Source: Bacteroidota bacterium
Lineage (GTDB): Bacteria; Bacteroidota; Bacteroidia; Cytophagales; UBA9547
DNA length: 64,000 bases
NCBI GenBank assembly: GCA_004293915.1
Contig: RDZG01000057.1
Location: 1 to 64,000 of the forward strand
Direction: 5' to 3'
Positions within the stretch are counted from its first letter, which is position 1; each line of letters starts with the position of its first letter. The notes beneath the pieces are model-generated. The model was not told the DNA's origin. It did not search any database and saw only the letters and a list, made by a program, of their open reading frames with translations. Made by a program: the position numbers and the translations under genes. This document shows positions 144 through 35,135 of the stretch, in pieces.

Positions 144-1403
144 TTGCAAAACATACCACTTTCAGAACGGCTTAGACCAAAATCGCTTAACGATTTTTTT
201 GGACAATCCCATTTGGTTGGACAAAGCGGTGTGATGAGAAAAATTTTGGAAAACAAATCGCTGCCTTCCATTATTTTTTGGGGTCCACCTGGTGTGGGCA
301 AAACCACTTTAGCTGGAATTATTGCTACCCATTTTGATTTGCCTTTTGTGGCTTTGAGTGCCATAAGTGCAGGAGTAAAAGAAGTGCGAGAGGTTATAGA
401 AAAAGCAAAATTTACACAAAAAACAATTCTTTTTATTGATGAAATTCATCGTTTTAATAAATCACAACAAGATGCTTTGCTAGCTGCTGTGGAGAAAGGA
501 ATTATTGTTTTGATAGGAGCTACAACCGAAAATCCATCTTTTGAAGTTGTTTCTGCATTGCTATCACGTTGCCAAGTTTATGTGCTTAAAGCATTTGAAA
601 CCAGCGAGTTAGAGGCACTACTGCATCACGCCATTCAAAAAGATGACTGGTTGCGAAATAAAAATTGTACATTAAAAGAAACCGAAGCTTTGATTCGGAT
701 TTCGGGTGGCGATGCCAGAAAACTACTCAATTTGTTAGAATTAATCGTTGGTTCTGCTGATGAAAACACAACAATTACAGACGAATTGGTACTTTCGATT
801 GCCGATAAAAATATTGCACTTTACGATAAAAATGGCGAGCAACACTATGATATTATTTCTGCATTTATAAAATCGATTAGAGGCAGCGACCCAAATGCTG
901 CTGTTTATTATTTGGCTCGGATGATAGAAGGAGGCGAAGATGTGTCGTTTATTGCCCGAAGGCTATTGATTTTGGCTTCTGAAGATATTGGAAATGCAAA
1001 TCCAACAGCTTTGGTAATTGCCAATAATTGTTTTCAAGCTGTAAATGTGATTGGCTATCCCGAAGCAGAAATCATTCTAAGTCAGTGTGTTACCTATTTG
1101 GCTGCTTCTGCCAAAAGCAATGCCGCATACAACGCAATTAAACAAGCTCGTGTTTTTGTGAAACAAACTGGCGATTTGCCTGTGCCTTTGGCATTGCGAA
1201 ATGCCCAAACAAAATTAATGAAAAACATGGATTATGGCAAAGACTATAAATACAGTCATCTGTATGATAATAATTTTGTAGCACAAGAATTTATGCCAGA
1301 AAAAGCTGCAAAAACCGTTTTTTATGAGCCAGGAAAAAATCCAAGGGAAGAAGAAATGAGGCAACATCTTCGCAAACTTTGGAAAGAAAAATACGGATAT
1401 TGA
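144..1403 (+). CDS. rarA: Replication-associated recombination protein A (AAA+ ATPase RarA/MgsA)
   Basis: 419 aa. Walker A FWGPPGVGKTT. AAA+ core plus MgsA C-terminal helical domain pattern. Confidence 0.85.
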   Translation: MQNIPLSERLRPKSLNDFFGQSHLVGQSGVMRKILENKSLPSIIFWGPPGVGKTTLAGIIATHFDLPFVALSAISAGVKEVREVIEKAKFTQKTILFIDEIHRFNKSQQDALLAAVEKGIIVLIGATTENPSFEVVSALLSRCQVYVLKAFETSELEALLHHAIQKDDWLRNKNCTLKETEALIRISGGDARKLLNLLELIVGSADENTTITDELVLSIADKNIALYDKNGEQHYDIISAFIKSIRGSDPNAAVYYLARMIEGGEDVSFIARRLLILASEDIGNANPTALVIANNCFQAVNVIGYPEAEIILSQCVTYLAASAKSNAAYNAIKQARVFVKQTGDLPVPLALRNAQTKLMKNMDYGKDYKYSHLYDNNFVAQEFMPEKAAKTVFYEPGKNPREEEMRQHLRKLWKEKYGY

Positions 1404-1421
1404 CCTAATAAAACCAATATT

Positions 1422-2225
1422 TTAACCAAACAAACATTTATGAGCAAAGGTACGAATTGCACCTATCGTTTCGATGGGCTTTTCGTGAATAGCTTGATGA
1501 TCACACTCTTCCATAAAAACGGCATAGCTAAACGGTGCCAAATGACACTGAGCCAAACTATCTTCAAATTTTACAGAACCATCGTTTTTTCCAATAATAT
1601 ACAAAACTGGAAATTGGGCTTCGACCAAAACTTTAGTTCTGTCTGGTCGGTCTCGCATTGCTACAATAGCATTTTTTACACCAATTTCAGAAGCTTTTAG
1701 ACCCATTTTTATAATACTTTGTATGGCTGAATCGCATTTTTTTCTGTTTTTTGGATAAAACATTGGTGGTACAAATGGTTTTATAAATGCTTCCAGTCCA
1801 TTATTATCCAAAAAATCTATGGTTTTGTTTCGTTGCAATTTTTTCTCATCCGAGTCTTCAAAAGCGGTAGAATTGCACATGACCAACCCTTTAATCATAG
1901 CTGGGTATTTTTCTAAAAAAGCCAACGAAACATAGCCTCCAAGCGAATGTCCGACTAGTACAAATTCTAAAACATTCATTGCAACTAACTGATTATAAAC
2001 AGATTCAGCCAGCAATTCCATAGTGGTTTTGTCGCTCAAAACGGGGCTGCTCCCAAATCCTGGCAAGTCGATGCTGATTACAGTAAAAGATTTTGAAAGA
2101 CTTTCTAAAGCTTCGTCCCAATATTCTTTGGCTTCGCAAAACCCGTGTAAAAGCACAACAACCGGACCATCACCATCTCGAGTATAACTCAATGGAGGTG
2201 TTTTTAAAATGAAATTTGTAGCCAT
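1422..2225 (-). CDS. Alpha/beta-fold hydrolase
   Basis: 267 aa. HGF..EY motif and nucleophile elbow GHSLGG. Confidence 0.7.
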   Translation of the reverse strand: MATNFILKTPPLSYTRDGDGPVVVLLHGFCEAKEYWDEALESLSKSFTVISIDLPGFGSSPVLSDKTTMELLAESVYNQLVAMNVLEFVLVGHSLGGYVSLAFLEKYPAMIKGLVMCNSTAFEDSDEKKLQRNKTIDFLDNNGLEAFIKPFVPPMFYPKNRKKCDSAIQSIIKMGLKASEIGVKNAIVAMRDRPDRTKVLVEAQFPVLYIIGKNDGSVKFEDSLAQCHLAPFSYAVFMEECDHQAIHEKPIETIGAIRTFAHKCLFG

Positions 2226-2232
2226 AGATTTG

Positions 2233-2496
2233 TTAATGTGTTAAATATCTATAATCTTTTTCAATTCCCAAAATTTGCTCTATGTGATACACCTCAGGGC
2301 AAGAGTTCCAAGTGAACATATTGCCCGAAAGAATTTGGTATTTTTTGCGGTCTTCTGGCTTTACAAATTTGGTAGACGGAAGTTTTTTAGCTGGTACAGT
2401 GATAATTCTTCCATCTTCTAAATAGATAGAAAAATGGGTGTTTTCAGTCCAAAGTATTTTTTTAATTTTTGGATGTGTTCCGATGAAGCCTTCCAT
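2233..2496 (-). CDS. Small DUF2442-like protein
   Basis: 87 aa. Resembles DUF2442 family short proteins as remembered (NTHFSIYLEDGRII). Sits at the end of the purL-side gene string. Confidence 0.4.
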   Translation of the reverse strand: MEGFIGTHPKIKKILWTENTHFSIYLEDGRIITVPAKKLPSTKFVKPEDRKKYQILSGNMFTWNSCPEVYHIEQILGIEKDYRYLTH

Positions 2497-2501
2497 GTGT
2501 T

Positions 2502-3674
2502 CTACTTTGTACTATTTGTGTTAAAATTATAAGTTTTTCCAATAATTTCTTTTAATAATGAAATTTGATTAGCGGTTGCGTTCTTTTCTAAATCAAAAAT
2601 TTTTAATATCAAATCTGAATTAAACTTTTTATCATCTTTTTTTAATTCTAATTCATTTAACAAAAAAACATAATGTTTATTTATTTTCTCCACTTCTATA
2701 TTCTTATAGATTTCTGGAAATAATAACAACATCCCATCTCTAAATTTTAGAAGAGTCAACTTTTCTTTAAGATTTTTATTTTCAATAATATTTTTTTTCT
2801 CTAAAATATCTAATTCTAGGTTTGCATTTAGTTCCTTCACTATAATTTTGGATTTCTCGGAATTAAATTCTATACTATCTCTTAAACCTTCAATTTCTGA
2901 TTCGTTTACTTTATTAAATATCTTAAGATTATTATCATATTTATTTTGTTCAAATTTATTTTCATTTGATTGCTTAGTTAAATCATTATTTTGTTTCAAT
3001 TTTAGTCTTTCAGTATAATAATTTTCTAAACTATCATCGATAAAAGATATTTTTTCTATAATAATATTAGTAATTTTAAATGGTGAATTAATTGATTTAA
3101 TTATAAAGTCATGTTTTTTTTCAATTTCCGAGTTTAGATTTGCTGTATTATTAAAAATTTCATCTACCTTTTTATTTGTAAATATTTTTTTTATTTCAGT
3201 ATTTATCTGTGATTCTAGGGCTAATAATACGTTTTTTGGATCTAATATATAGGAAGAAACTTTTTCAAAATCAGTTGAAATTGTCAATATTACTTGTATT
3301 TGAAGTTGAAATTCTATTACATCTAAACTTTTTGCTTTAAATGGTTTTAAATCATGCTTTATAGGAATTAATTTTACTGTCAAAATAGAATCATAGGAAT
3401 TTATAAGAGGTAATTTAAACAACATGTGTTCACTATTCTGGGAAAGGATAGTTGTCGGGATTTTCTTTTTAATTTTAACAAATAGAACTGGCGAAAAAGT
3501 TGATATGACTTCTAAAATATTTAATCTATAGTATTTTAAAAGTTCTAATTCATCTATTTTATCAACTTTTCTGTAGTTTTTATTTTCAACACATAAATCA
3601 TGGACAAACACATAGCCCATATAAAAACAGATTATTAAAAAGATCAAAAGTATAATTCCAAACATGATTTCCAT
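2502..3674 (-). CDS. Hypothetical membrane-anchored protein, Asn/Lys/Ile-rich, low complexity
   Basis: 390 aa. One N-terminal TM helix. Very AT-rich codon use unlike neighbours. Starts 17 bp after the purL stop. Confidence 0.4.
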   Translation of the reverse strand: MEIMFGIILLIFLIICFYMGYVFVHDLCVENKNYRKVDKIDELELLKYYRLNILEVISTFSPVLFVKIKKKIPTTILSQNSEHMLFKLPLINSYDSILTVKLIPIKHDLKPFKAKSLDVIEFQLQIQVILTISTDFEKVSSYILDPKNVLLALESQINTEIKKIFTNKKVDEIFNNTANLNSEIEKKHDFIIKSINSPFKITNIIIEKISFIDDSLENYYTERLKLKQNNDLTKQSNENKFEQNKYDNNLKIFNKVNESEIEGLRDSIEFNSEKSKIIVKELNANLELDILEKKNIIENKNLKEKLTLLKFRDGMLLLFPEIYKNIEVEKINKHYVFLLNELELKKDDKKFNSDLILKIFDLEKNATANQISLLKEIIGKTYNFNTNSTK

Positions 3675-3690
3675 TTTTTTTATTTAATTT

Positions 3691-6117
3691 TTACCCCAAC
3701 ATCCCCTCAATCACTCCATCATACTGATTTTTAATTTCGTCAATGCCAAAATAAGTTTCGCCATCTATTACTGCATTTTTGCCTGTTACATTTCCCAAAA
3801 ACAAATAATCTACTTCTAGCACTTCGAAATAGCGGGTAAAAGCTTCTACGTTGCCTTTGCTTACGGTTACTAAAACTCTGCCTTGCGCTTCGCCAAAAAG
3901 GAAAGCATCTTTGCGAATAAGGGCATCAGTAAAAATCTCAAATCCTAATCCACGAGGAAAAGCAGCTTCCATCAAAGCTACTATCAATCCACCATCCGAA
4001 AGATCATGACAAGCATTAATCAATTTGTCTTTGATGAGTTTTTTTATCGTTTGTTGCATCGCATACTCTTCGTCCAAATCAAAATATGGAGCTGGAGAGG
4101 CTTTTATTCCCAAATAGCCATACAAATATTCTGAACTGGCAATGTCGTTGACAGAATTTCCTATCAAATAAATAAAATCTCCTTCAGCTTTAAAATCAAG
4201 TGTCATGTGATTACTTCTATCGTCCAAAATTCCAAGCATACCAATCGTAGGTGTTGGAAAAACGGGAATGGTTTCACCTTCTGGAGTTGAATATTGGTTG
4301 TAAAAACTCACATTTCCACCAGTAACTGGGGTTTGGAATTTCTCACAAGCTTTTTTCATTCCTTTGATACTTCCCACAAATTGCCAATATACATGCGGAT
4401 TGTAGGGATTTCCAAAGTTCAAATTGTTGGTAACTGCCACTGGCTCACCACCTGAGCAAACTACATTTCTCGATGCTTCTGCCACCGCCATGGCACAGCC
4501 TTCTTCCGGATTTGCATTTACATACCTTCCATTGCAATCGATATTCATAGCCAAAGCTTTATTCGTACCTTTTATTTTTACCACAGCCGAATCGGAAGGA
4601 GCATTGGTACACATATTTATGGTTCCCACCATGCTATCGTATTGGCGAGCAATCCATCTTTTCGATGCAATATTGGGTCTGTTTAATAAGAATTTGGAAA
4701 TTTCCACAAAATTCGTAGGCACTTTTACATCTTCGATATTAAACTTTTGAAACTCTTTGAAATAAGGAGGTTCGCTATATTCTCGATGATACACAGGAGC
4801 TCCGCCACCTAGTACTAAATCGTGGCAAGGAACATCGGCAACTAGAAAAGCATCTAATCCAAGCCCCCTAACCTCCGAAGGGGGAAGTGCTGCCGCATCC
4901 AACTCTTGCGAATGCAAATCTTGCGTAAGCAACTCCCCCTTCGGGGGCTGGGGGGCTTTTGATGCGCCAGCAGTCCCCCCTTCGGGGGTTAGGGGGCTTT
5001 TCCCTGTTTCCATGATTTCATTCATCAAATTATGCTGCTCTTGTGGAACATTATAATAAAAGTTTAATCTTTTAGAATCAGTTACTACCCCAATTTGGGC
5101 ACAATTCAAATCCCATTTCTCAAAGATGGACAATATTTTTTGTTCCATTCCTTTATGAACTACCACGAGCATTCGCTCTTGGCTTTCGGAAAGCAGGATT
5201 TCAAAAGGTTTCATATTTGCTTGTCGCATAGGAACTTTGTCGAGCCAAATCACCATACCATGTTCGCCTTTAGCACTCATTTCTGAGGTAGAACAAATGA
5301 TGCCAGCTGCTCCCATATCTTGAATACCGATTACAGCACCAGATTCTAGTACTTCCAAACTGGCTTCGAGCAACAGTTTTTCCATAAAAGGATCGCCTAC
5401 TTGCACTGCAGGAAGGTCTTTTGTAGAATCTTCTGTTAAATCTTTCGATGCAAAAGCAGCTCCATGAATACCGTCTTTTCCTGTAGAAGACCCTACAATA
5501 AACACTGGATTCCCCACACCATACGAAGTAGCAGATGCCGTATGTCCCACTTTTGCTATTCCTGCCGAAAACGCATTTACCAGCGGATTAATCGTATAAC
5601 ACTCGTCAAAATTGATTTCGCCTCCCACCGTAGGAATTCCAAAAGCATTGCCATAATCGCCAATTCCTTTTACCACCCCTTTCAAATGCCATTTAGCTTT
5701 TTCGTTGGTCAAATTTCCAAAACGCAACGAATTTAATTGGGCAATCGGTCGTGCTCCCATCGTAAAAATATCTCTATTAATACCACCAACTCCTGTAGCA
5801 GCTCCTTGGTAAGGCTCCAAAGCAGAAGGGTGATTATGACTTTCGATTTTGAACGAACAAGCCAATCCACCACCAATATCTACCAAACCTGCATTTTCTT
5901 CTCCTGCTTTGGCAAGCATACGTGGGCTATCTTTTGGCAGTTGTTTAAGCCACACGATTGAGTTTTTGTAGCAGCAATGTTCGCTCCACATGACCGAAAA
6001 TATACTTAATTCAGTAAAGTTTGGGCTGCGACCTAATATTTGTTTTACTTTTTCAAATTCTTCGTCACGAAGTCCTAATTTTTGAGCTGTTTCTAATGTT
6101 GGAAGTTGTTCTTGCAT
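3691..6117 (-). CDS. purL: Phosphoribosylformylglycinamidine synthase subunit PurL, carrying an in-frame ~50-aa repeat-derived insertion
   Basis: 808 aa. AIR-synthase-related N- and C-domain motifs typical of PurL. About 60-70 aa longer than usual because of the GC-rich element at 4861-5005. Confidence 0.85.
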   Translation of the reverse strand: MQEQLPTLETAQKLGLRDEEFEKVKQILGRSPNFTELSIFSVMWSEHCCYKNSIVWLKQLPKDSPRMLAKAGEENAGLVDIGGGLACSFKIESHNHPSALEPYQGAATGVGGINRDIFTMGARPIAQLNSLRFGNLTNEKAKWHLKGVVKGIGDYGNAFGIPTVGGEINFDECYTINPLVNAFSAGIAKVGHTASATSYGVGNPVFIVGSSTGKDGIHGAAFASKDLTEDSTKDLPAVQVGDPFMEKLLLEASLEVLESGAVIGIQDMGAAGIICSTSEMSAKGEHGMVIWLDKVPMRQANMKPFEILLSESQERMLVVVHKGMEQKILSIFEKWDLNCAQIGVVTDSKRLNFYYNVPQEQHNLMNEIMETGKSPLTPEGGTAGASKAPQPPKGELLTQDLHSQELDAAALPPSEVRGLGLDAFLVADVPCHDLVLGGGAPVYHREYSEPPYFKEFQKFNIEDVKVPTNFVEISKFLLNRPNIASKRWIARQYDSMVGTINMCTNAPSDSAVVKIKGTNKALAMNIDCNGRYVNANPEEGCAMAVAEASRNVVCSGGEPVAVTNNLNFGNPYNPHVYWQFVGSIKGMKKACEKFQTPVTGGNVSFYNQYSTPEGETIPVFPTPTIGMLGILDDRSNHMTLDFKAEGDFIYLIGNSVNDIASSEYLYGYLGIKASPAPYFDLDEEYAMQQTIKKLIKDKLINACHDLSDGGLIVALMEAAFPRGLGFEIFTDALIRKDAFLFGEAQGRVLVTVSKGNVEAFTRYFEVLEVDYLFLGNVTGKNAVIDGETYFGIDEIKNQYDGVIEGMLG
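4861..5005. repeat. GC-rich palindromic MITE/REP-like element inserted in-frame in purL
   Basis: AAGCCCCCTAACCTCCGAAGGGGGAAG ... AACTCCCCCTTCGGGGGCTGGGGGGCTTTT ... GTCCCCCCTTCGGGGGTTAGGGGGCTTTT. Same terminal motifs as the intergenic copy at 34981-35135. Local GC far above the genome background. Confidence 0.6.
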
Positions 6118-6515
6118 TATATTATTGTTATTTTTTTTAATTCTTTTATATTATCAAAATGTTTATCTAAAGTTAATAAGGTCAAATCATAAGCAATACA
6201 ACTCGCAGCAATCCATATGTCATTTTCAGGAATCGGCTTACCTAATTCCTTTAATTTTTTTCTAATCTCAGAATAGTAAGTAGCAATTTCTGAATCAATT
6301 TGTATAATGTTTAATTTATTACAAAAAACGTCTATCTCTTTTCTGTTTTTATCTTTTTTTAAAGAAATATTTGCTCCAAAATAAAGTTCCCCCAAAACAA
6401 TAACTGGAATAAATATATTTGAAGTGATGAAATTATCTATATGTTTTTTAACAACCACATTTTGTCTTAGATATTCAACTATTATATTTGTATCCAATGC
6501 TACCTTAACTACCAT
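6117..6515 (-). CDS. PIN-domain toxin (VapC-like)
   Basis: 132 aa. Begins VALDTNIIVEY, the PIN Asp signature. 7-bp overlap with the upstream small gene. Its stop codon overlaps the purL ATG (TTATG on the reverse complement). Confidence 0.7.
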   Translation of the reverse strand: MVVKVALDTNIIVEYLRQNVVVKKHIDNFITSNIFIPVIVLGELYFGANISLKKDKNRKEIDVFCNKLNIIQIDSEIATYYSEIRKKLKELGKPIPENDIWIAASCIAYDLTLLTLDKHFDNIKELKKITII

Positions 6516-24423: not shown

Positions 24424-24468
24424 GAAGATGTGATTTTAGTAAAACCCAAAAAAATAGATTAAGATAAA
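24424..24468. repeat. 45-bp direct repeat B (displaced NFACT 3'-end remnant), right boundary of the inserted element, overlapping the sprA stop
   Basis: gaagatgtgattttagtaaaacccaaaaaaatagattaagataaa. Reading-frame remnant EDVILVKPKKID* versus the intact EDVILVKPQKTD*. Confidence 0.8.
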
Positions 24469-27400
24469 CTAAATCGGAGTCTGACGCCAAACTGAAAAGT
24501 GCTTTGACGGAACGAAGTCGAAATTTTTGGAATGGTCAATCTATATTCGCAATAGATTTGAATATTTAATCGTTGATTAAGTTGATAACCAATATTTGGT
24601 GTTACTTGATACGTAGTTACACCTTGTGTTACCACAGGCGAATCATCCAATCTGCGTTGGGTAATTTTTGAATCTCTCCGAGAAATATCGACCCTAAATT
24701 GTACATCGTTTTTGATAACAATTGTCCGTCCACGATACATAAAAGGCAATTTTAAATTTGCTTTTGTATAGCCATATCCAAAAACAAATTCGCTACTTCT
24801 GTTTTCGTTGATTTGGCTATTGGCAATACTGAGTGTAACATTTCTATCGGTTTTGTACTCAACCCTAAAATTCATATTGTTTTTGGTTTTCATATTTACA
24901 CCTAAAAAAGGAGTAAATCTATCTATAATCGAAACGCTATTGATTACATTGATGGGAGCAAAATTATTTTTAAAATCGGCTGCCGAATCTGGTTTTGCCA
25001 CTCCAATTGGCTGTGATGGATTTAAGTATTCAAATGGAAAATCTTTTCTGATATCATTAGTATTGTTGTATTTCCCGTTTGATGTAAAATTTCCAACATT
25101 ATAAGTCGAAGAATATGCATGTGTGATACTGATAGAAGGAAATATTTTTTTTAATCCTGGAAAAATATTTCCCAAACCTGCATAATCTAATCGCCAGTTT
25201 GGCAACGGTATGCGTGGAAATGCCGACAAGCCCGATTTAGTGGCATCTTTTCCGCTATATGCAGCCAAAAAAGCTGGAATCAACACATCTTGATGGTTTT
25301 TATCATACCTAAAGTCTGTTTTTTGAGTTCCATTTTCTTGGGCTTCAATCGTTGGATTTCCATCTTTTAATCTTTCCAAAATTACATTTCGATTAGATTG
25401 AAATTCATTAAATACCGCATTGGTGTTGTCTGAATTATCTGCCACAAAAAATGTACCGATAGACATAAAAGAAATATTATAATTTCCAGAACGTGTGGGA
25501 GCTAGGGATTCGAATCGATTATAAAATGGGTTTGATGTATCCGAAGTTGTATTGTATTTAAACAATTCTTGATAGGCACTTGTGTAACTCACTTTGGCAT
25601 CGAGCTGTATTCTAAAATCCCTAAAAGGCTCCACTGTGGCTCTTCCATTGATGTTATTTGTTCGGTTTTGTGCCACAAAATTACTCAGATTTTGTGCTTT
25701 CGACATGTATTTATCCGCAAAATCTGGATTTCTGTAAATTCGATTATCTTGACTACCTAAAATAAATGGCAAAAAATCGGTGTAAAGCGAACCTTCATTT
25801 TGGCTATCATCGAGTCCAAAATAGCGAGGTTTACCTTTATATCCAGGCAGAACTGTGCCTTCTGTTTGTTGGTAAGTAGCATTCACAGATTTTACCATCG
25901 TGAGTAAACGGGCAACAAATTTGAGTCCTCTAAGTTCGGGTGGAGGTGGGGCTTTTTTGCTTGTATCTTTTGGATTTGGGACTGGTTTTGGAGCAGGAGG
26001 TTGATTTAACTTACTCAAAAACTTAACTTTATTATAGATTTTTGCCAAATCTGCACGAGCATTTAAGGTTAAATCACGGTTATTTTGGGCTGTATTACCC
26101 AACGAATCGGTTTTTCGACCTGCAGCACCCGCATTAAAATTAAAGCCCGCATTATACGAAGCATCAGCAGATAAAAAACTCGTTAATGGAAATTTATCGA
26201 GCGGTAATTTATAATTTAGTCGAGCATTTTGGACAAAGTTTTTGGTTCGTCCGCCTCGTGTTAAATTAAACATAACCGAATCTCGTTTGGTAAAATTTGG
26301 ACGACTCGAACTAATTAAATCATCATTTATATCTCCGCCTGGCTCATCCACAATGGCATTTACATTGGCAGAATAATTAAAACTAATGCTTTTGGTAAAA
26401 TTCCAACTCATGGCATAGTTTCGGTTAAACAAAAAACGTTTTTCAAACGTTGGAATAATCCCATCTATGTTATGTCTGCCCGATTCTATTCCGTTGCTGT
26501 ATTGCGTTTTGATAATGGTTCGATCCAAATCGCCACGCAGGGTAATACTGGCTGGCAATGGCGAAAAATTCATTTCTTTAATTAATTTCAGATATGGAGA
26601 TTTGAACGGACCATCCACTTTTTTTAAAGGCTCAATATTTGAATTTGCTAAATTATAATTATAACCCAACCCCGCTCTATAATTTCTTGAGTTATAGCTT
26701 TGGATATTTACATTTGCACGATTTACATCCGAATAAGCAACCGTAGCCGAAAGATTTTCGACATCATAAATATGTTTTTTTGCATTGGGTTTTACTTTTA
26801 CTTTTTGCACATTGGTAAGACTCACACTTCGTCTAAGTGTTTGATCTTCAATAAGTTTTGCATACTCGCTACGTATAGAATCGGGTCTGCCATTTATAGA
26901 ACGTTCGGTTAAAACATCTGGTCGCAAAGGGTCATACCTAGGTGTAATGTCTTTTCTGTCGATACTCACAAAAAGTGGCAATTTTAATCCAATGTGTTTT
27001 TCGTTTAGAGGAATAAGTTTATCGATGGCAAAATTCCCATTAGCACCATAATCGTGTGTGGTTTCTTGCAACCGTTGCGAAACTTTTTGCTCCAATCCAC
27101 CAAAACCAGCAGTAGCATAACGAGTTGTGCCTGCTATATTTCCAAAATCAGCTAACTTAATATTTAGTTTTGCGGTAGCAGCAAGTCCATCGGCATTTTG
27201 AAAACCCGACATACGCAATTCGTTTGCCCAAATACACAAACTTTTTGAGGTTCTGTCGCCACCCTGTTTTTTAGGATTACGAATACCAATCATAACAGCT
27301 TGAATATTAGCATAATTAGGCGTTCCTCGAATATATAATCTTTGTTTAGTAAGATTTTTTCCAGTACTATCTGTAAGAAAACCTGCATCAAAAATCTGAA

Positions 27401-30400
27401 AACGATCTACATCGCGAGTCGAATCTCTGCGTACTTTTTGGGTCGATAAATCTTCGAGCTTAAAATCAAACCAATTGTCTTTTCTCCAAATTTCAAGTTT
27501 ATCATTTAAAATACTTCCATCGTCAATTTCTTTTCCGTTTAAAGTTGATAATTTATCATTTTTTGTAAAATCAAGCGGAATTTCTACTTCGTAATAATTA
27601 TCTGTTAAATCTGTACCAATACGCATAAAAATGCGTGTATCTTCATCTTTTGTGAAAATATCAGATGTTTCGGCATGTACAAACATCCGCATACGGTCGT
27701 AGTTTATTAAGTTTACTCCCGATGAACCTGTACTATAAATTTTAAAAGCACCTCTAGCATCGTTATAAGCCAAATTATCGACACACAAACGCAACGAGTG
27801 TTCGTTTAATCTTCTGTTTACAGTATTGCTCAAATCTCTATCTCGCTGAAAACCTGGTGGTTGCACATACGGACTATTTCCATTTAACACACCTTGAGTA
27901 TTTTCTTCAGCATTTACTTGCGAAATAGTAAAAACTTTATCATCGGGTTCGATTACTTGTTTCAAACCTTTTCCAGATAAATCTCCCAAAAATGGACGCC
28001 AAGTGCTGGCAACTAATTCTAGTTTTGCGGTTCGAATCACAACGGGTTCTGCCCAATCGGTGAGTGCCATACGCAAAAAGCGAATAGATTTAAAATTTTC
28101 TATATCTCCAACTTTTTCAAAACCTTCTCTGAGCGGAATTCGGAACAAATACCATTTCACTGCTTCGTCAGCATCCAATGCATTATTATTATTAAAATCT
28201 ACGGTTTCTGTAACTTCATTGATGATAAAATTAGAACCTACTTTTAATTGACCAGGTCTTAAATCTAATTTATATTTAAAATAAGCTTCTATATCATTAA
28301 GTGTGTTGTTTTGATTCAAATCTTCGTTATCGGGTGTATTATAATTATTTCGGGTTTGCCCAGTAGATTCTTGCGAATTTTTTTCTTGTCCATTAAACAA
28401 TTTATAACGTTCTGCAATTTTTGCCGAACGTCCATTTATATTGTCATACGATGCATCCAAATAATGTTTAAAATTATCGTTTGATGGATCAGACTCTATT
28501 TGATTATAGGTTTCAGTCGAAACTATCGATTTTATTTTATCCAAAAAACGACTTCTAAAATACCCTCTTTCTTGGTCATCACTCAAGCCTTCGAGTCCTA
28601 TGTCTTGTGCTTCTCTGGCTCCTTCTTGTGTGCCAAAAGCATTGGTAAGATAGGGCTGATTGGTAACTCTACTAACTGCTGTCAAATCTGTGGTTGGAGA
28701 ATTTATATCGTTAGGCACCGAAAGTCCTTGTTCAAAATTTTGTCTGCCATCTTTTATGGCATCTTCGGAAATACTACCTAAATGGAACTCAATTCGTCCA
28801 CCAGTTGCGTTACTTTTGTTGAGTCGTCCGTCTAGCACTCTACCTCTATTTGTGGCTATAAATGGATCCATCATCCAAAACTCCAAGTACTGATAGTTGG
28901 CATTATCAAAATCGGTATCTTGGTTGTTTACAGCTCGTGTGATACCAGCCCAGCTATTTCTTGGCGATGTTAAAAGTCCATTTTGGTTCAAATTTGAGCT
29001 ATAATTATACGGACCACGTTCTTCTGGATAAAAAGCCAAATCGAAAACAGGCTCAGGTGTTTGCAATTGTTGTCTATCTCTTCCCGGAAATAACGCCTGT
29101 TGGTTTATCGCTCGCACATAATGATTTGTTAAATCTTCGGCTGTGATGCTGTCTGGAATATTTCCTCTTTGTTGATAAAACGAAAAATCGACTTGATACC
29201 AAGCCAATCGAGCACGATTATCGCCAATAGCAATGGGATTAGAATTTTCGTTATAATTCAATCCTTCTAACCCTTTTGGAACAGATGCAATTCGCCACAC
29301 ATTTTGCGGAGCACTGCTGCCTAGAGAAAACTCTGTTTGGCTGTTTTCAAAATCATCTAAATAATAATTGGGTTGCCCACCTTTTTCAACAAAAGATGGC
29401 GAACCTGTGTTGAGTTTTGCAAATTCACCACTAAATTGAATGGTAGATTTTTCTTTGGTGTTAATTACAGGAAGTTTATCAACTAATTTGGTTATAAATC
29501 CACTCTCACGTTTAAATGTTCCATCCAATCCATAAATACTATTACTTACTGGTTCATCACCAATTGCCACACGAGAGATTTGTGGACGTTCGCTCAAGCT
29601 CAAATATGTTGCTCCAAAAGCAACATCTTTATTTACTTTATAATCTGCACGTAAGCCCAAAAATCCACGTTGCCGAACCTGAAACAAATCTTGTTTGTCG
29701 AATTTAACTCTTACATCTTGACCGGGCATTAAAAAAACAGGATTTATAATCTTTATTTGCCCAAGTTCTGGCATTAAAATGTAATCAATATTTTCATTAA
29801 GTCTTTGACTTCCAGAATATACGCTAACAGATTTCGGGTCAATATTTCCTCCAAAACTGGCAAATTGAATCACGTCCGAACTCGAAGACTGAAGTTGTCC
29901 AATCAAAAAGAATTTGTTTTTCCCTGCCAATTGCAACACATCTGATTTTGTATTTCGATAGATTTCATCAAAAACATATTGATTAATCAATTGCGGTTGA
30001 GCAAGTGTATCTTGTCCAAAAGATTTTCGCAAATGGCTACCAAAAGGCTCAAGCACAGGGAAAATCATGCGTCCATAGGCTGGATCAATTGTAACTGCCG
30101 TAACTTTATTGGTTTGAATACTTAAATTTATATTCTGACTTGGGTCGTTTAGATTTGTATTTTGAGGTGTCGTATTTTGTTGATTTGGATTTTGTGTAGT
30201 ACCTTGATTGGGCAAAGTTGGTTGCAATGCCGTGTTTTGCGGACCAACTGCACTTGTTTGATTAGTGGCATTATCAACAAAATCGAAATTTCCATCGGGT
30301 TGCAAATCGTTACTCATGTTGAGTTTATCCAAATTCATAACCTCAATCAATGGTTTTCCTTCTATTCCACCAAAAACATCATCTCTTGTGCCACCATAAT

Positions 30401-32165
30401 TTAAAATCGGATTATTTAATTGTGTTCTATCGTTCCTATAATTTACCCTAAACTGGAAATTTTCTCTCGAAATTTGTGTACTTCCGAGCGAATAAATGTT
30501 TTTCATTTGCAAATTCCACATTGGGATATTAGTCCGAATGGTACTTGGTCGCAATAATTTCAAAAATAACAATGTTTTATTTACTGTGGTAATAGGTACT
30601 TGATTGGGATTTTGTTGAAATTGCTGCCCATTTTGATTAAATGTTGGATCACCTAAATTTGTGCCTGTTTGGCTACTTGTTCGTCTGTCGTCAATCATTT
30701 CTCCAACTTTATAAAAAACACCACGATACGAATATTCGTAAGCCACAGCCAAAACATCGTCTCTACTAAGTGGAGAGTTTAATGAAATATAACCCAATTG
30801 CGGATGAAATCGAAAGCGAGAAGGGTCAAGTTTTTTTGCATTTCTAACCAATTCATAATCGTTTCCGTTTTCGAGCATAAATGCCGAACTGCTCATTACA
30901 CTTACTATATCATCGGCATTTCTTGTGCCAGCACTTTCACTATTTATAAGTTTTTCGTATAAATTATTGGCTCTGTTATCGGCAACACCGTTGCTTAGTG
31001 TTCCCATTTGAATATCTTCTTTATTATATGGATTTTTTTCTCCCAAATCCATAAAAGCAGCAATGTTGTTTAATTCTATCGATGTATTATCGCGGTTGGT
31101 TACATACACATCCACACGTGTAATCATCACACCCGAGTTGATAACTGGCGTGGTTTCGAGCGATTTTTCATAATTATCTCTAAAAAATTGGGATAAAAAA
31201 TAATGTTGGTTGTCTTGATAATCTGTCGAACGAATCTCAAATTTGCGAACCTGTGCTCCACCTTGCACTTTTACTTCGTCTGCCCTACCTCGTTGATTTG
31301 CAGCCACACCCACAATATTTAAACGTCCAAATTTCAATGTAGCTTTTACCCCAAACAAATTTTGTGCTCCTTGAATCAAACTGTTATTCAATGGCATACT
31401 TACATTCCCAGCCTCAATTTTTTGAATGATATCGGTTTCGGATGAAGTATAGTCTATTTTAACGGTATTATCAAAATCGAACTGCGAACGTGTATCTTGA
31501 TTAATGGTTAATCGCAAACGTTCGCCAATTTTTCCTTGTGCGTTCATCGCTATATTTTGATCAAACCTAAACGCACCAATAGTTCTTAAATTTACAGGAA
31601 CTGCTGGATTATCAATGGTTTGCAAATTATAGCCAAAATCTAATAAAACCGAACCATTTAGTTTTACATCAATATAGTTTCCACCAAAAATACGGTCTAA
31701 ACTTGGGTTAATATAGACTCTCGGAACTAGTCCACGATTGCTTGTGGCAGGATTTTGGGCTTCTTTTTCTTTTGCTTTTTGTGCATAAAAGTTTTTGATA
31801 GTCTTGCGTTTTTGATATTCTTTAAATTGTTCATAAGTCATTTGGGTTGGAGGTCTTAGCTCAACATCGTTGAGTTTTTCGTCAATCGTATACGATTTTC
31901 CATCTTCAGTTATTTGAACATCTGTTTTTGCTTTTTTATTTCCTATATCATAAAAAGGAGTTTTGCCTTTTGGATCCATAAACTCATCGCCATATCTATC
32001 TTTTGGTTTGTAAGTAGAGCGTTTCGATGGTTTATATTTTTGAGCGGGTGCCGTTTTTGTAGTATCGTTTTGGGCAATAGCAAAAGTGCATACTCCAAAA
32101 ATGAAGCATATTAATGTTCCAACGTTAATTAAATTGTTGGTAATATGTCGAAGTATTTTACTCAA
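24459..32165 (-). CDS. sprA: Gliding motility / T9SS protein SprA
   Basis: 2568 aa with a signal peptide. Giant beta-rich protein directly downstream of ruvA, as in Flavobacterium. Size and composition fit SprA. Confidence 0.8.
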   Translation of the reverse strand: MSKILRHITNNLINVGTLICFIFGVCTFAIAQNDTTKTAPAQKYKPSKRSTYKPKDRYGDEFMDPKGKTPFYDIGNKKAKTDVQITEDGKSYTIDEKLNDVELRPPTQMTYEQFKEYQKRKTIKNFYAQKAKEKEAQNPATSNRGLVPRVYINPSLDRIFGGNYIDVKLNGSVLLDFGYNLQTIDNPAVPVNLRTIGAFRFDQNIAMNAQGKIGERLRLTINQDTRSQFDFDNTVKIDYTSSETDIIQKIEAGNVSMPLNNSLIQGAQNLFGVKATLKFGRLNIVGVAANQRGRADEVKVQGGAQVRKFEIRSTDYQDNQHYFLSQFFRDNYEKSLETTPVINSGVMITRVDVYVTNRDNTSIELNNIAAFMDLGEKNPYNKEDIQMGTLSNGVADNRANNLYEKLINSESAGTRNADDIVSVMSSSAFMLENGNDYELVRNAKKLDPSRFRFHPQLGYISLNSPLSRDDVLAVAYEYSYRGVFYKVGEMIDDRRTSSQTGTNLGDPTFNQNGQQFQQNPNQVPITTVNKTLLFLKLLRPSTIRTNIPMWNLQMKNIYSLGSTQISRENFQFRVNYRNDRTQLNNPILNYGGTRDDVFGGIEGKPLIEVMNLDKLNMSNDLQPDGNFDFVDNATNQTSAVGPQNTALQPTLPNQGTTQNPNQQNTTPQNTNLNDPSQNINLSIQTNKVTAVTIDPAYGRMIFPVLEPFGSHLRKSFGQDTLAQPQLINQYVFDEIYRNTKSDVLQLAGKNKFFLIGQLQSSSSDVIQFASFGGNIDPKSVSVYSGSQRLNENIDYILMPELGQIKIINPVFLMPGQDVRVKFDKQDLFQVRQRGFLGLRADYKVNKDVAFGATYLSLSERPQISRVAIGDEPVSNSIYGLDGTFKRESGFITKLVDKLPVINTKEKSTIQFSGEFAKLNTGSPSFVEKGGQPNYYLDDFENSQTEFSLGSSAPQNVWRIASVPKGLEGLNYNENSNPIAIGDNRARLAWYQVDFSFYQQRGNIPDSITAEDLTNHYVRAINQQALFPGRDRQQLQTPEPVFDLAFYPEERGPYNYSSNLNQNGLLTSPRNSWAGITRAVNNQDTDFDNANYQYLEFWMMDPFIATNRGRVLDGRLNKSNATGGRIEFHLGSISEDAIKDGRQNFEQGLSVPNDINSPTTDLTAVSRVTNQPYLTNAFGTQEGAREAQDIGLEGLSDDQERGYFRSRFLDKIKSIVSTETYNQIESDPSNDNFKHYLDASYDNINGRSAKIAERYKLFNGQEKNSQESTGQTRNNYNTPDNEDLNQNNTLNDIEAYFKYKLDLRPGQLKVGSNFIINEVTETVDFNNNNALDADEAVKWYLFRIPLREGFEKVGDIENFKSIRFLRMALTDWAEPVVIRTAKLELVASTWRPFLGDLSGKGLKQVIEPDDKVFTISQVNAEENTQGVLNGNSPYVQPPGFQRDRDLSNTVNRRLNEHSLRLCVDNLAYNDARGAFKIYSTGSSGVNLINYDRMRMFVHAETSDIFTKDEDTRIFMRIGTDLTDNYYEVEIPLDFTKNDKLSTLNGKEIDDGSILNDKLEIWRKDNWFDFKLEDLSTQKVRRDSTRDVDRFQIFDAGFLTDSTGKNLTKQRLYIRGTPNYANIQAVMIGIRNPKKQGGDRTSKSLCIWANELRMSGFQNADGLAATAKLNIKLADFGNIAGTTRYATAGFGGLEQKVSQRLQETTHDYGANGNFAIDKLIPLNEKHIGLKLPLFVSIDRKDITPRYDPLRPDVLTERSINGRPDSIRSEYAKLIEDQTLRRSVSLTNVQKVKVKPNAKKHIYDVENLSATVAYSDVNRANVNIQSYNSRNYRAGLGYNYNLANSNIEPLKKVDGPFKSPYLKLIKEMNFSPLPASITLRGDLDRTIIKTQYSNGIESGRHNIDGIIPTFEKRFLFNRNYAMSWNFTKSISFNYSANVNAIVDEPGGDINDDLISSSRPNFTKRDSVMFNLTRGGRTKNFVQNARLNYKLPLDKFPLTSFLSADASYNAGFNFNAGAAGRKTDSLGNTAQNNRDLTLNARADLAKIYNKVKFLSKLNQPPAPKPVPNPKDTSKKAPPPPELRGLKFVARLLTMVKSVNATYQQTEGTVLPGYKGKPRYFGLDDSQNEGSLYTDFLPFILGSQDNRIYRNPDFADKYMSKAQNLSNFVAQNRTNNINGRATVEPFRDFRIQLDAKVSYTSAYQELFKYNTTSDTSNPFYNRFESLAPTRSGNYNISFMSIGTFFVADNSDNTNAVFNEFQSNRNVILERLKDGNPTIEAQENGTQKTDFRYDKNHQDVLIPAFLAAYSGKDATKSGLSAFPRIPLPNWRLDYAGLGNIFPGLKKIFPSISITHAYSSTYNVGNFTSNGKYNNTNDIRKDFPFEYLNPSQPIGVAKPDSAADFKNNFAPINVINSVSIIDRFTPFLGVNMKTKNNMNFRVEYKTDRNVTLSIANSQINENRSSEFVFGYGYTKANLKLPFMYRGRTIVIKNDVQFRVDISRRDSKITQRRLDDSPVVTQGVTTYQVTPNIGYQLNQRLNIQIYCEYRLTIPKISTSFRQSTFQFGVRLRFSLS

Positions 32166-33332: not shown

Positions 33333-34982
33333 ATGAGTAACCTTCTACGAAAAAAGAAAAGCCTAATGGCAAGCTTTTGCATTGCAGCATCGCAAATTGC
33401 ATTTGGACAAATTCAACCACCACCAACGTTGGCATTGCAACCTCAACCTACATTTCAACCAGCAGGTATGCCATTGTGGAATATTACTGGGCAAGTACGT
33501 ACTCGTACAGAATTTAGAGATGGTTTAGGAAATCCAGCTTATGTAGGGGCAGCTCCAAATATTTTCACATCGCAACGTACAAACTTAAATATTGGTTACC
33601 GTTGGGATAAATTATTGTTTGGTTTGGATTTGCGTGATGTGCGTGTTTGGGGACAAGATGCCGCAACTATTAACAACGCTGATGGAAACAAATTCTTTTT
33701 GCACCAAGCTTGGGGAGAGTTCATTATTGCTTCGGCTGCCGATACAAACTGCAAATTAAAAATTGATAATCTTTCATTAAAAGTTGGTCGCCAAGAGTTG
33801 ATTTATGACGATTCTCGTTTGCTTGGAAACTTAGATTGGTTACAACAAGGCAGAAGACACGATATGGCATTATTAAAAATGATGCACCGTGGGTATCAAG
33901 CCGATTTTGGTGTGGCTTTTAACCAAAATAACGACAATTTTGGAAATTATGGTACTACTTATGTGCCTGCAAATACTCCAGCAACTGCAGCTGCAGGAAC
34001 AATTCCAGTAAATGCATCAAATGCTGGTAGTGTTGGAACTTCTTGGCTAGGTCCTTTGGGTACAAATGGTGCCCAAAATATGTACAAATCAATGATGATG
34101 TTGTATTTGAGCAAAAAATTCAATCAAACTAAAATTTCTGTTTTGGCTTTGAATGATAACTTCCAGAAATATTCTATTACTGGTGTAAATGTTGCTGCTA
34201 ATACTGCTGTAAGAAATTATGGCAACTTTCCAGGTAGAGAAAATGGCAATGGTGTACATTCTCGATTCACTGCTGGTTTCCAAATATCAACTCAATTTGG
34301 AAATTCTACAGAAGGTTGGAAAACATTTATAAATGGTGGTGCATATTACCAATTTGGAAAATCTCCACAATCAAGAGCTAATGGAACTTCTCAAAATGTA
34401 GAAGCATCACACATATTTGGTTATGCAACATTCTCGAAAGATAAATGGTCGTTTGGTCCTGGCTTTGATATTCTTTCGGGCAACAAACAATCTAAACCTG
34501 ATAGTTATGACCACCGTTTTGATCCATTATATGGTACTCCGCACAGATGGTGGGGATATATGGATTATTTCTATGTTGGAACGGGTGGACCAGCAGCTGG
34601 TTTGCAAAACTTTTACTTGAAAGGTAAATATACACACAAATCGTTCTTTGTTTCTTTAGATGCACATGCATTCTTCAGTCAAAATTCGATGAAATATGTA
34701 TCAAAAACAGGTGCATTAACAGAAACCAAAACAGGTGTAATGAACTTAGGAACAGAGTTTGATTTGATTTGCAATGTGCATGTAAACAAATTTGTAAATC
34801 TTGAGGCTGGATATTCAGTATTCTTATCTACTGAAGCTACCGAGTTTGCAAAAAATGGCACACCAGGTGTAAGGGCTTGGAATGGCTCTCGCTCAACAGA
34901 CTCATTTAATCAATGGGGATATTTGATGATAAACATTCGTCCTGATTTCTTATTCCAAAAACCAGTTGCAATCAAAAATTAA
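33333..34982 (+). CDS. Outer-membrane porin-like protein (alginate-export-family-like), upstream of the nitrate-type ABC transporter
   Basis: 549 aa. Signal peptide. Beta-barrel character. C-terminal aromatic-rich strands. Confidence 0.5.
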   Translation: MSNLLRKKKSLMASFCIAASQIAFGQIQPPPTLALQPQPTFQPAGMPLWNITGQVRTRTEFRDGLGNPAYVGAAPNIFTSQRTNLNIGYRWDKLLFGLDLRDVRVWGQDAATINNADGNKFFLHQAWGEFIIASAADTNCKLKIDNLSLKVGRQELIYDDSRLLGNLDWLQQGRRHDMALLKMMHRGYQADFGVAFNQNNDNFGNYGTTYVPANTPATAAAGTIPVNASNAGSVGTSWLGPLGTNGAQNMYKSMMMLYLSKKFNQTKISVLALNDNFQKYSITGVNVAANTAVRNYGNFPGRENGNGVHSRFTAGFQISTQFGNSTEGWKTFINGGAYYQFGKSPQSRANGTSQNVEASHIFGYATFSKDKWSFGPGFDILSGNKQSKPDSYDHRFDPLYGTPHRWWGYMDYFYVGTGGPAAGLQNFYLKGKYTHKSFFVSLDAHAFFSQNSMKYVSKTGALTETKTGVMNLGTEFDLICNVHVNKFVNLEAGYSVFLSTEATEFAKNGTPGVRAWNGSRSTDSFNQWGYLMINIRPDFLFQKPVAIKN

Positions 34983-35135
34983 AAGCCCCCTAACCCCCGA
35001 AGGGGGAATTAAAAATTTAGTTTTAATTAAAGGGTAAATATTTATAATATGTAAACATTTGCTAGTTTAGATTCCCGACTGGCAAATTTCAAGAACTTAA
35101 AAACTCCCCCTTCGGGGGTCGGGGGGCTTTAAAAA
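34981..35135. repeat. GC-rich palindromic MITE/REP-like element (intergenic copy)
   Basis: AAAAGCCCCCTAACCCCCGAAGGGGGAATT ... AT-rich ~95-bp core ... AACTCCCCCTTCGGGGGTCGGGGGGCTTTAAAA. Termini are inverted repeats of each other. Confidence 0.7.

Follow-up and report, generated by a model that had tools for sequence, protein, structure and literature searches.

A composite palindromic element in frame within purL of a Bacteroidota bacterium, and its likely kinship with insertion elements carrying DUF559 genes

How does a GC-rich palindromic segment come to lie in frame in the middle of an essential gene, and to what kind of element does it belong? The question is raised by purL in a contig of a Bacteroidota bacterium (assembly GCA_004293915.1, contig RDZG01000057.1), of which we analysed positions 1 to 64,000, hereafter called the window. 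An earlier reading of these letters (the original prediction) had described a palindromic mini-element inside purL and a sister copy between two genes. We conclude that the purL segment is likely to be a composite miniature, lacking an endonuclease gene, of a family of insertion elements linked to the nuclease family DUF559. The host gene and the parts of its insert are the following.

3691-6117, minus strand: purL, coding for PurL (FGAM synthase II, small type), 808 amino acids, an uninterrupted open reading frame (ORF) according to the ORF list and its translation
4861-4999 (139 nt): composite miniature element made of three terminal units and an interior, read in the purL frame as residues ~374-420, SPLTPEGGTAGASKAPQPPKGELLTQDLHSQELDAAALPPSEVRGLG
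4861-4886, plus strand: unit A, AAGCCCCCTAACCTCCGAAGGGGGAA, with one stem mismatch; antisense to purL, read LPPSEVRGLG
4887-4973: composite interior, overlapping unit B, with extended inverted arms GTGCTGCCGCATCCAA and TTTGATGCGCCAGCAG, which resemble the interior of an 80-nt element at locus L077
4933-4958, minus strand: unit B, AAGCCCCCCAGCCCCCGAAGGGGGAG, a variant with a CAG spacer; sense to purL, read APQPPKGE
4974-4999, minus strand: unit C, AAGCCCCCTAACCCCCGAAGGGGGGA; sense to purL, read SPLTPEGGT

The host ORF carries the Pfam domains FGAR-AT_linker, AIRS and AIRS_C (E values of 6e-55, 2e-51 and 8.5e-16) and matches the structure of Thermus thermophilus PurL (PDB 3viu, E = 3e-168); the linker, the duplicated AIRS/AIRS_C domains and the homology to a solved structure all assign it to PurL/FGAM synthase II. 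GC content per 2 kb ranges from 0.26 to 0.42 along the window and is highest in the bin 4001-6000. The 26-nt unit AAGCCCCC-NNN-CCCCC-GAA-GGGGG-AR is present three times in 4861-4999 and twice more as an inverted pair at 34983-35129. Allowing one mismatch, CCCCCGAAGGGGG has five sites in the window (4872+, 4935-, 4976-, 34994+ and 35106-), compared with an expectation of 0.03 from dinucleotide-preserving shuffles, and the 22-nt core GCCCCCNNNCCCCCGAAGGGGG, with up to three mismatches, also has five (4863+, 4935-, 4976-, 34985+ and 35106-; expected 0.00); the bounds given for units A to E are this core plus two bases on each side. The purL element combines two sense units and one antisense unit, and SPLTPEGGTAGASK is an example of the peptide it encodes. 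A repeat search revealed inverted arms of 42 nt (4861-4902 and 4958-4999, 88% complementary) and, in the interior, a 15-nt direct repeat (4894-4908 and 4909-4923), and the element folds as a long hairpin with a z-score of -7 to -8 relative to shuffles.

The insert is missing from all thirteen PurL homologues that were aligned, at 69-95% identity. The closest one, P0001 (769 amino acids, 95% identity outside the gap, the best among the 120 homologues listed), reads METGK-INDSQFSILNSA-LVANVP where the window protein reads METGK-SPLTPEGGTAGASKAPQPPKGELLTQDLHSQELDAAALPPSEVRGLGLDAF-LVADVP, that is, 12 residues against 51, for a net gain of 39, and about 46 of these 51 residues are encoded by the 139-nt element. 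The DNA of P0001 (locus L001, assembly GCA_013297755.1) aligns cleanly up to GGAAAAA and resumes at TTAGT; the purL site is unoccupied, and the 22 kb of this locus contain no copy of the unit. The 120 best homologues listed are 650-770 amino acids long, with the exception of P0068, which reaches 809 through an N-terminal extension. A variable loop of ~27 residues already exists at the site in the clade of the window and is absent from Pedobacter- and Flexibacter-type PurL, but in the thirteen-homologue alignment the extra segment on top of this loop was found only in the window protein. Against 3viu, the gap places window residues 343-423 opposite chain residues 335-349, at the junction of the two enzyme halves. 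By these alignments the insert occupies a loop, variable among lineages, between the PurL halves, and the insertion is to be regarded as recent and as a lineage marker. An AlphaFold model built on a shallow 14-sequence alignment gives residues 377-419 a predicted local distance difference test (pLDDT) score below 50 and no secondary structure, and the inserted loop of ~47 residues is probably disordered. The surface loop expected in the original prediction is only weakly addressed by this placement and this model. The extended PurL is predicted to be made and active, and purL is probably functional despite the insert.

The sister copy of the element lies between a porin-like ORF (33333-34982) and an NrtA-like transporter gene whose ATG is at 35146, and begins right after the upstream stop codon (34980-34982).

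34983-35129: sister element between genes, with two inverted units enclosing a 95-nt AT-rich core
34983-35008, plus strand: unit D, AAGCCCCCTAACCCCCGAAGGGGGAA
35104-35129, minus strand: unit E, AAGCCCCCCGACCCCCGAAGGGGGAG

The repeat search delimits its inverted arms to 32 nt (34979-35010 and 35102-35133), and at the 3' end of the upstream transcript the element may also serve, incidentally, as a hairpin. These results refine the original prediction in several respects. The palindromes that it placed at 4861-5005 are indeed present in three copies, but one of them has a mismatch (CCTCCGAAGGGGG) and the element ends at 4999. Its in-frame extension of PurL by about 50 residues is borne out by the uninterrupted ORF, with the net gain at the lower value given above. 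The intergenic copy, proposed at 34981-35135 with inverted termini and an AT-rich core, was recovered as a pair within the narrower bounds 34983-35129, and the extra terminal repeat attributed to the purL copy corresponds to its third unit, compared with two in the intergenic element. Finally, the expectation that orthologous proteins would lack the segment, which would otherwise be an ancestral feature, agrees with the thirteen homologues and with the empty site in the closest DNA.

The unit is not particular to this genome. An exact 21-base pattern, AAGCCCCCNNNCCCCCGAAGGGGG, searched in one genome per species, has at least 119 loci in other Bacteroidota genomes, in keeping with the original expectation that further copies of the motif would exist. 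The matches listed include Flavobacteriia (Flavobacterium, Lutibacter, Aequorivita, Capnocytophaga, Gillisia and Salegentibacter), Cytophagia, Chitinophagia, Sphingobacteriia (Sphingobacteriales) and Bacteroidia (Prevotellaceae, Bacteroidaceae and Paludibacter), together with metagenome-assembled genomes (MAGs) bearing the out-of-line labels Spirochaetaceae and Limnohabitans (two); the pattern is also present in 17 viral contigs. The genome loci contain 212 copies, organised as 58 convergent pairs spanning 59-312 nt and 101 single units. Conservation is limited to ~28 nt, AAGCCCCC-[T/C]A[A/G]-CCCCC-GAA-GGGGG-A-[A/G]-YT, and the interiors are hypervariable, although common within lineages; the inner arms of the window element resemble a perfect 80-nt hairpin in L077. 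Neither the window elements nor full-length elements belong to any Rfam family at gathering or permissive thresholds, and a blastn search of plasmids with the unit yielded only weak, chance-level matches. The 53-residue insert had no candidates in a protein word-index search and, in an exhaustive HMMER search of 1.84 billion representatives, retrieved only unrelated tandem-repeat proteins (P0121-P0123), such a short low-complexity query being poorly detectable in both.

Several other features of these loci were observed. A second type of hairpin, CTCCCTCCCC-TGT-GGGGAGGG followed by TTGGGGTGGGGCTT, is nested in or adjoins GCCCCC-type miniatures (L023 802-891; L046 3429-3530; L072 ~5050-5097; L120 4835-5069) and, with the stem CCCTCCCC, obeys the same rule of tag, arm, loop and arm. 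Seven viral contigs (L121, L125, L126, L128, L129, L134 and L136) share the motif, a common protein of ~510-560 amino acids and neighbouring genes, which suggests one related group of phages or prophages with the unit at a conserved position. The Flavobacterium-type elements at L102 6563-6680 and L104 2934-3075 have similar flanks and partly conserved interiors; they are probably orthologous insertions kept across species, and some copies would therefore be old.

Alignment of the units revealed an unusual terminal architecture. The first base of the spacer covaries with the second base after the G-run (T-A 129, C-G 55, A-T 6, G-C 1 and T-G 5 of 215; mutual information 0.77 bit). This pairing is kept within 54 and 56 of 60 arms, whereas paired arms share the base in 30 of 60 cases, as expected by chance, so that each unit behaves as an independent structured module. 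The 5' tag is the mirror image of the pyrimidine arm, hence a parallel, Hoogsteen-type partner of the purine arm, and is neither its direct copy nor its complement. At the loci of DUF559 genes described below, 102 units are informative in this respect: the mirror copy upstream has no mismatch in 55 and a single one in 35, the mirror copy is a better fit than a direct copy in 83 units and a worse one in 4, spacers of 3 nt are the most frequent, and the commonest deviation is an A where a T is expected (31 of 49). The units thus have the sequence needed for an intramolecular Y*R-Y triplex of the H-DNA type, and this signature suggests that they may be able to form one. At neutral pH, however, runs of protonated C are disfavoured.

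Inverted ends around a variable non-coding core of 59-312 nt, with sub-families sharing their interiors within lineages, could also describe a classical MITE (a miniature transposable element with inverted repeats), derived by deletion from an insertion sequence (IS) whose DDE transposase recognises terminal inverted repeats (TIRs) of ~26 nt. This origin appears very improbable to us. The arms vary independently while each keeps its internal pairing, which fits recognition of a structure better than recognition of a duplex TIR; 101 of the units are solitary; and target-site duplications were not found. All-against-all clustering of the ORFs in the loci detected no recurrent transposase, only host families (class I aminoacyl-tRNA synthetases and E2) and shared phage genes, and no ORF of transposase size is bounded by units. 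The only pair at a distance of ~1 kb (L011), considered as a candidate autonomous element, was rejected, as it brackets an ordinary EamA-type transporter gene.

Units related to this one are also found around genes for DUF559 proteins. L054 is a Cytophagales MAG that comes from the study which also supplied the nearest relative of the window; there, a DUF559 domain (Pfam, 1.6e-34) lies in frame in MetH between exact units. The homologues of this domain are mostly ORFs of 110-220 amino acids, and two of their contexts taken at random both have unit pairs: in L138 a free-standing DUF559 gene lies within a perfect inverted repeat of 32 nt, GCCCCCTGTCCCCCCAAGGGGGCACTTAGGTC, and in L139 units surround DUF559 inside metH. 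We then sampled 80 metagenome loci encoding relatives (L140-L219). Alignment of the 260 nt upstream with the reverse complement of the 260 nt downstream scores at least 28 in 55 of the 80, compared with 1 of 64 controls taken 640-900 nt away. A perfect hairpin of a pyrimidine arm and a purine arm, facing outward, lies beside the gene at 72 of the 80 loci (59 of these have one on each side), compared with 5 of 139 control segments, and its stems comprise 44 different sequences, each perfectly complementary. Several termini are only a few mismatches away from the window unit (for example L163, AAGCCCCCCCCGCCCCCGAAGGGGGAG), and near-identical units flank DUF559 in L054, L163, L139, L138, L143, L144, L150 and L158. 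Units A to E of the window fit the end of a DUF559 element, with the tag GCCCCC, the spacer TAA, CAG or CGA, the arm CCCCC, the loop GAA and the arm GGGGG.

These genes are frequently inserted in others. The frame of DUF559 stays open for at least 100 residues past the domain in 54 of the 80 loci, and in all 20 cases examined by Pfam the domain is embedded in a host protein: MetH (three positions, including L054), MetRS, LeuRS (two positions), another class I synthetase, PriA, RecG, an AAA_11/12 helicase, two DNA methylases and an IcmF-like fusion of MeaB and mutase. Examples of in-frame DUF559 are given here.

L155, 1411-1970: in-frame DUF559
L163, 1316-1872: in-frame DUF559
L177, 1391-1967: in-frame DUF559

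The junctions in MetRS are clean (...DLDWGVRVP/TSLNPSEGG...DUF559...NNPPLEGREA/KVLYVWFDAPIGY). In MetH, the linker that joins the B12 cap to the B12-binding domain harbours full elements in L140-L150 and a miniature of 24 residues in L054, where a single metH gene (643-5010, minus strand, an open frame of 1456 amino acids) contains, at two separate sites, six units and a DUF559 domain. The left part of the full element in L054 has the same composite order, SPLTPEGGT-KAPQPPKGE-...-PLGAGGL, as the purL insert. The label 'methionine synthase' given by JGI to small DUF559 ORFs was discarded as a guide to a metH context, since L138 shows that it may result from annotation transfer; genuine metH insertions do exist. 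Among solved structures, the DUF559 profile hits PDB 3hrl (5e-31) and also I-Bth0305I, a proven homing endonuclease, in its catalytic domain (3r3p, 5e-6), the latter in agreement with a survey of PD-(D/E)XK nucleases that groups Vsr, DUF559 and DUF2726 in one clade with I-Bth0305I (PMC3424549).

Our preferred explanation for the purL segment can now be stated. An element of this family would end in a unit of 26-40 nt, built from a pyrimidine tag on the 5' side ((A/G)GCCCC...), ~3 nt of spacer, a pyrimidine arm, a loop of 3-6 nt and a purine arm, and two units in inverted orientation would bound one element. Full-length members of ~420-700 bp would hold a DUF559 gene (Vsr-like, PD-(D/E)XK) between the units, and miniatures of 59-300 bp only a short, variable interior. 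With arms free of stop codons, either type would be read through in most frames as a peptide rich in Pro, Gly and Ser, and the copies surviving in essential genes would be those that kept the host frame and landed in permissive loops or linkers. In purL, a composite would have entered the lineage-variable loop after the split from the nearest sequenced relative. The DUF559 enzyme would supply the mobility, by homing or structure-directed cleavage, and would act in trans on the miniatures; the mechanism could be homing with later decay, or a structure-directed cut-and-copy in trans. Such genes are near-universally bounded by units, which favours mobilisation by the DUF559 nuclease, a proposal that we hold to be about evenly balanced or slightly short of it.

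A number of points weigh against this explanation. A DUF559 gene is found nearby in only one of the 119 motif-selected loci listed, so that the link is based on shared terminal architecture and not on proximity, and a search of the 64-kb window detected none. Since neither window element contains an ORF, the window holds non-autonomous members only. Neither a target-site duplication nor a target consensus was found at the flanks of the elements. Comparison of the occupied with the empty purL site does not show a simple gain of the element: ~8 host residues appear to have been lost or to have diverged, and the exact junctions and any target duplication are therefore not definable. The choice of loci by an exact pattern and the non-independent copies in related species bias the counts, the structural model of PurL is mediocre (mean pLDDT 66), and the case for translation is made entirely from sequence statistics. 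We know of no lone PD-(D/E)XK nuclease that serves as a transposase. Moreover, classical homing needs a homologous donor allele, and a spread to hundreds of unrelated sites is hard to explain in this way.

The same loci bear on a second history, in which a full DUF559 element homed into purL and the endonuclease gene was then deleted between the termini, leaving the miniature as a relic in situ. The MetH linker, with full elements in some organisms and a 24-residue miniature in another, would be consistent with such a decay, as would the three-unit composite in purL, so similar to the left part of the L054 element, and the loss of ~8 host residues, which fits an imprecise deletion or co-conversion. 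However, DUF559 was not found in any of the 120 top-ranking PurL homologues listed; at 95% identity, the nearest relative shows no remnant of an element, so that invasion and decay would both have to be recent; and the intergenic miniatures, which number in the hundreds and include 34983-35129, can hardly each be traced to a homing event. We therefore consider the relic unlikely, although less so than the other alternatives to a miniature that arrived as such.

The preferred explanation further holds that inserted copies are read through by the ribosome, and the family offers several lines of evidence on this. Copies lying 60 nt or more inside open frames of at least 150 amino acids amount to 76 of 212 (~36%) or, with the viral loci and the window added, to 92 of 249 copies in ORFs. 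Hosts confirmed by Pfam include MetH (six units), ValS, IleS, two Type ISP restriction-modification enzymes, a DnaG-like primase, an E2 acyltransferase and a histidine kinase. Two frames dominate, the sense frame reading SPLTPEGG and the antisense frame reading xPPSGxGGL, with 38 copies each. The TAA spacer, present in 51% of the intergenic copies, would be a stop codon in one sense frame; there it is replaced by CAG or CAA in five of five copies, giving APQPPKGE, and unit B of purL, which sits in this frame, carries CAG. Likewise, the antisense frame that TTA would block has TTA in none of seven copies; both counts include related species, so that the copies are not independent. This frame-dependent avoidance of stops in ORF copies implies, on sequence grounds, that the elements would be translated. 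The arms, being purely pyrimidine or purely purine, allow no stop codon on either strand, and for this reason the ends of the elements tolerate translation.

Frame use is also very uneven, with 38 copies in each of two frames and 1-7 in the other four. Two of the rarely used frames (PPNPRRG and PLRGLGG) are free of stops, and stop avoidance alone is thus insufficient to account for the bias. In L046 (833-4393, plus strand), the stop-to-stop frame that includes ValS also has an upstream RloB-like domain; rather than a fusion, this is probably a pair of neighbouring genes with no in-frame stop between them.

If the element were removed from the transcript in the manner of an intron, PurL would not be extended at all. 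The termini do pair into a long and very stable helix, and introns and inteins are where Vsr-like homing endonucleases otherwise occur (PMC3239194). Nevertheless, the frames of the hosts are open through whole full elements of ~500 bp and on both sides of them, and the ORF copies avoid the stop-creating spacer according to frame; neither property would be needed if the RNA were spliced. In addition, Rfam detected no intron or other RNA family, and the Pfam scans of DUF559 hosts detected no Hint (intein) domain. Removal from the RNA seems to us the least probable of the explanations considered here, and scarcely credible.

The shape of the unit, a short, GC-rich, imperfect hairpin with a conserved single-stranded 5' tag, often in inverted doublets, recalls repetitive extragenic palindromic (REP) elements. 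The units would then be REP hairpins mobilised by a Y1 (HUH) REP-associated tyrosine transposase (RAYT), their inverted pairs would be REPINs (REP doublets), and the DUF559 genes would be carried along or serve as favoured sites of landing. Intragenic REPs are on record, and in one RAYT subclass, from Bacteroidetes and Cyanobacteria, the transposase genes themselves contain frame-preserving REP insertions (PMC3733652, PMC6006769). One motif-bearing genome, at L024, indeed has a RAYT-like Y1_Tnp gene (2358-2819, minus strand; Pfam, 5e-28). It is, however, flanked by another repeat family, CACGCAGGGTATAAAACCCTGCG..., and for this reason this gene, the only clear one of its kind, was rejected as the mobiliser. 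An IS200-type query identified no further convincing Y1 transposase in ~1.08 Mb of mostly motif-bearing loci, a second, weak match falling inside an unrelated ORF of 736 amino acids in L065. The GTAG/GTGG tag is missing from the unit, which reads AAGCCCCC-NNN-CCCCC-GAA-GGGGG, the motif is missing from the REP tables of PMC6006769, and its core is identical across classes, whereas REP families are normally specific to a species or genus. A REP origin would also leave unexplained the 72 of 80 DUF559 genes bounded by units, and we judge it improbable, slightly more so than the relic. The L024 region (2086-3200), in which the RAYT-like gene lies amid arrays of CACGCAGGGTATAAAACCCTGCGTTATTGATG and AGCGTTGGGTTTTATACCCAACG, is a REPtron-like locus of its own, in a genome where GCCCCC units are found too.

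Set beside known systems, the DUF559-linked family shares traits with several of them. Rickettsia palindromic elements (RPEs) and the purL-type elements are both short palindromic repeats of ~100-150 bp, in many copies, many of them in frame in genes and translated as loops. The analogy drawn in the original prediction holds at the level of behaviour, about one third of the copies being in ORFs whose frames avoid the stop-creating variant. The two have no sequence relation, the RPE consensus having been compared by description only, and the host phylum here is Bacteroidota. RPEs have, to our knowledge, no associated enzyme, whereas related units here bound DUF559 genes and the core is conserved across the whole phylum. 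RPEs, whose description as in-frame palindromic repeats in genes we take partly from PMC3733652, carry a CGTC tag, and the units here have no CGTC but a GCCCC tag that mirrors the stem.

Like REPs and REPINs, the units are short GC-rich hairpins with a conserved 5' tag, frequently form inverted doublets, often sit just downstream of genes and have occasional in-frame copies in genes (PMC3733652, PMC6006769). They differ by the absence of a GT[AG]G tetranucleotide at the foot of the hairpin, by their strictly pyrimidine and purine arms with a mirror-repeat tag, and by an association with a PD-(D/E)XK nuclease instead of an HUH enzyme, no RAYT association having been found in the loci searched. 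With the EDxHD, Vsr-like homing endonucleases such as I-Bth0305I, the family has in common the nuclease fold (3r3p, 5e-6; PMC3424549) and the occupation of conserved housekeeping genes by full-length elements that recur at the same site (MetH linker, L140-L150). In contrast to these, the insert is seemingly just read through, with no intron in Rfam and no intein domain; the gene is bounded by structured inverted units, miniatures abound at unrelated sites, and no NUMOD or helix-turn-helix DNA-binding region was seen. Inteins, too, are selfish in-frame insertions with an endonuclease in essential proteins (aminoacyl-tRNA synthetases, helicases, MetH-type), but there is no Hint domain here and the host presumably keeps the 110-185 extra residues, or ~47 in purL. 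Finally, bacterial MITEs such as Correia/NEMIS, Nezha and the Coxiella QMITEs are likewise small and non-autonomous, with TIRs, a variable core and some copies in ORFs; in the present family neither a target duplication nor a parent with a DDE transposase was found, and solitary units are common.

As to the surroundings, a gene coding for a PIN-domain protein (6117-6515, minus strand) lies directly upstream of purL, its stop region abutting the purL start codon at 6117; in the relative (L001), PIN and other toxin-like genes also precede purL, in a different arrangement. Elsewhere in the window, a long ORF (24459-32165, minus strand, 2568 amino acids) has an SprA_N domain, related to type IX secretion and gliding, in support of the window being of Bacteroidota origin.

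In-frame palindromic repeats, both RPEs and intragenic REPs (PMC3733652, PMC6006769), and Vsr-like homing endonucleases (PMC3239194) were already known. In the literature covered, which leaves out most subscription journals, we found no description of the motif, of its peptides or of a link between DUF559 and structured termini; the two papers in which CCCCCGAAGGGGG occurs deal with other subjects, a cyanobacterial CRISPR study and prion-RNA binding. There is a substantial chance that the whole family merits a class of its own. More tentatively, and with somewhat less than even confidence, we propose a distinct class of selfish DNA made of translated-through DUF559 cassettes and their miniatures, with stop-free ends encoding Pro and Gly and capable of triplex formation, recognised by the nuclease, of which the purL insert would be a recent footprint left by an active, phylum-wide system.

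If this is true, these elements would represent a third way for selfish endonuclease elements to persist in essential genes, tolerated as a translated loop or domain, besides the two known ones, self-splicing introns and inteins. The large orphan family DUF559 would gain a concrete biological context, and an explanation would be at hand for the odd GC-rich islands and the inserts rich in Pro and Gly that disturb gene calling and protein alignment in AT-rich Bacteroidota genomes. The insertions would also provide a map of naturally permissive sites in MetH, aminoacyl-tRNA synthetases, helicases and PurL, as well as a sequence family, marked by strong mirror-repeat covariation, on which triplex formation could be tested in vivo.

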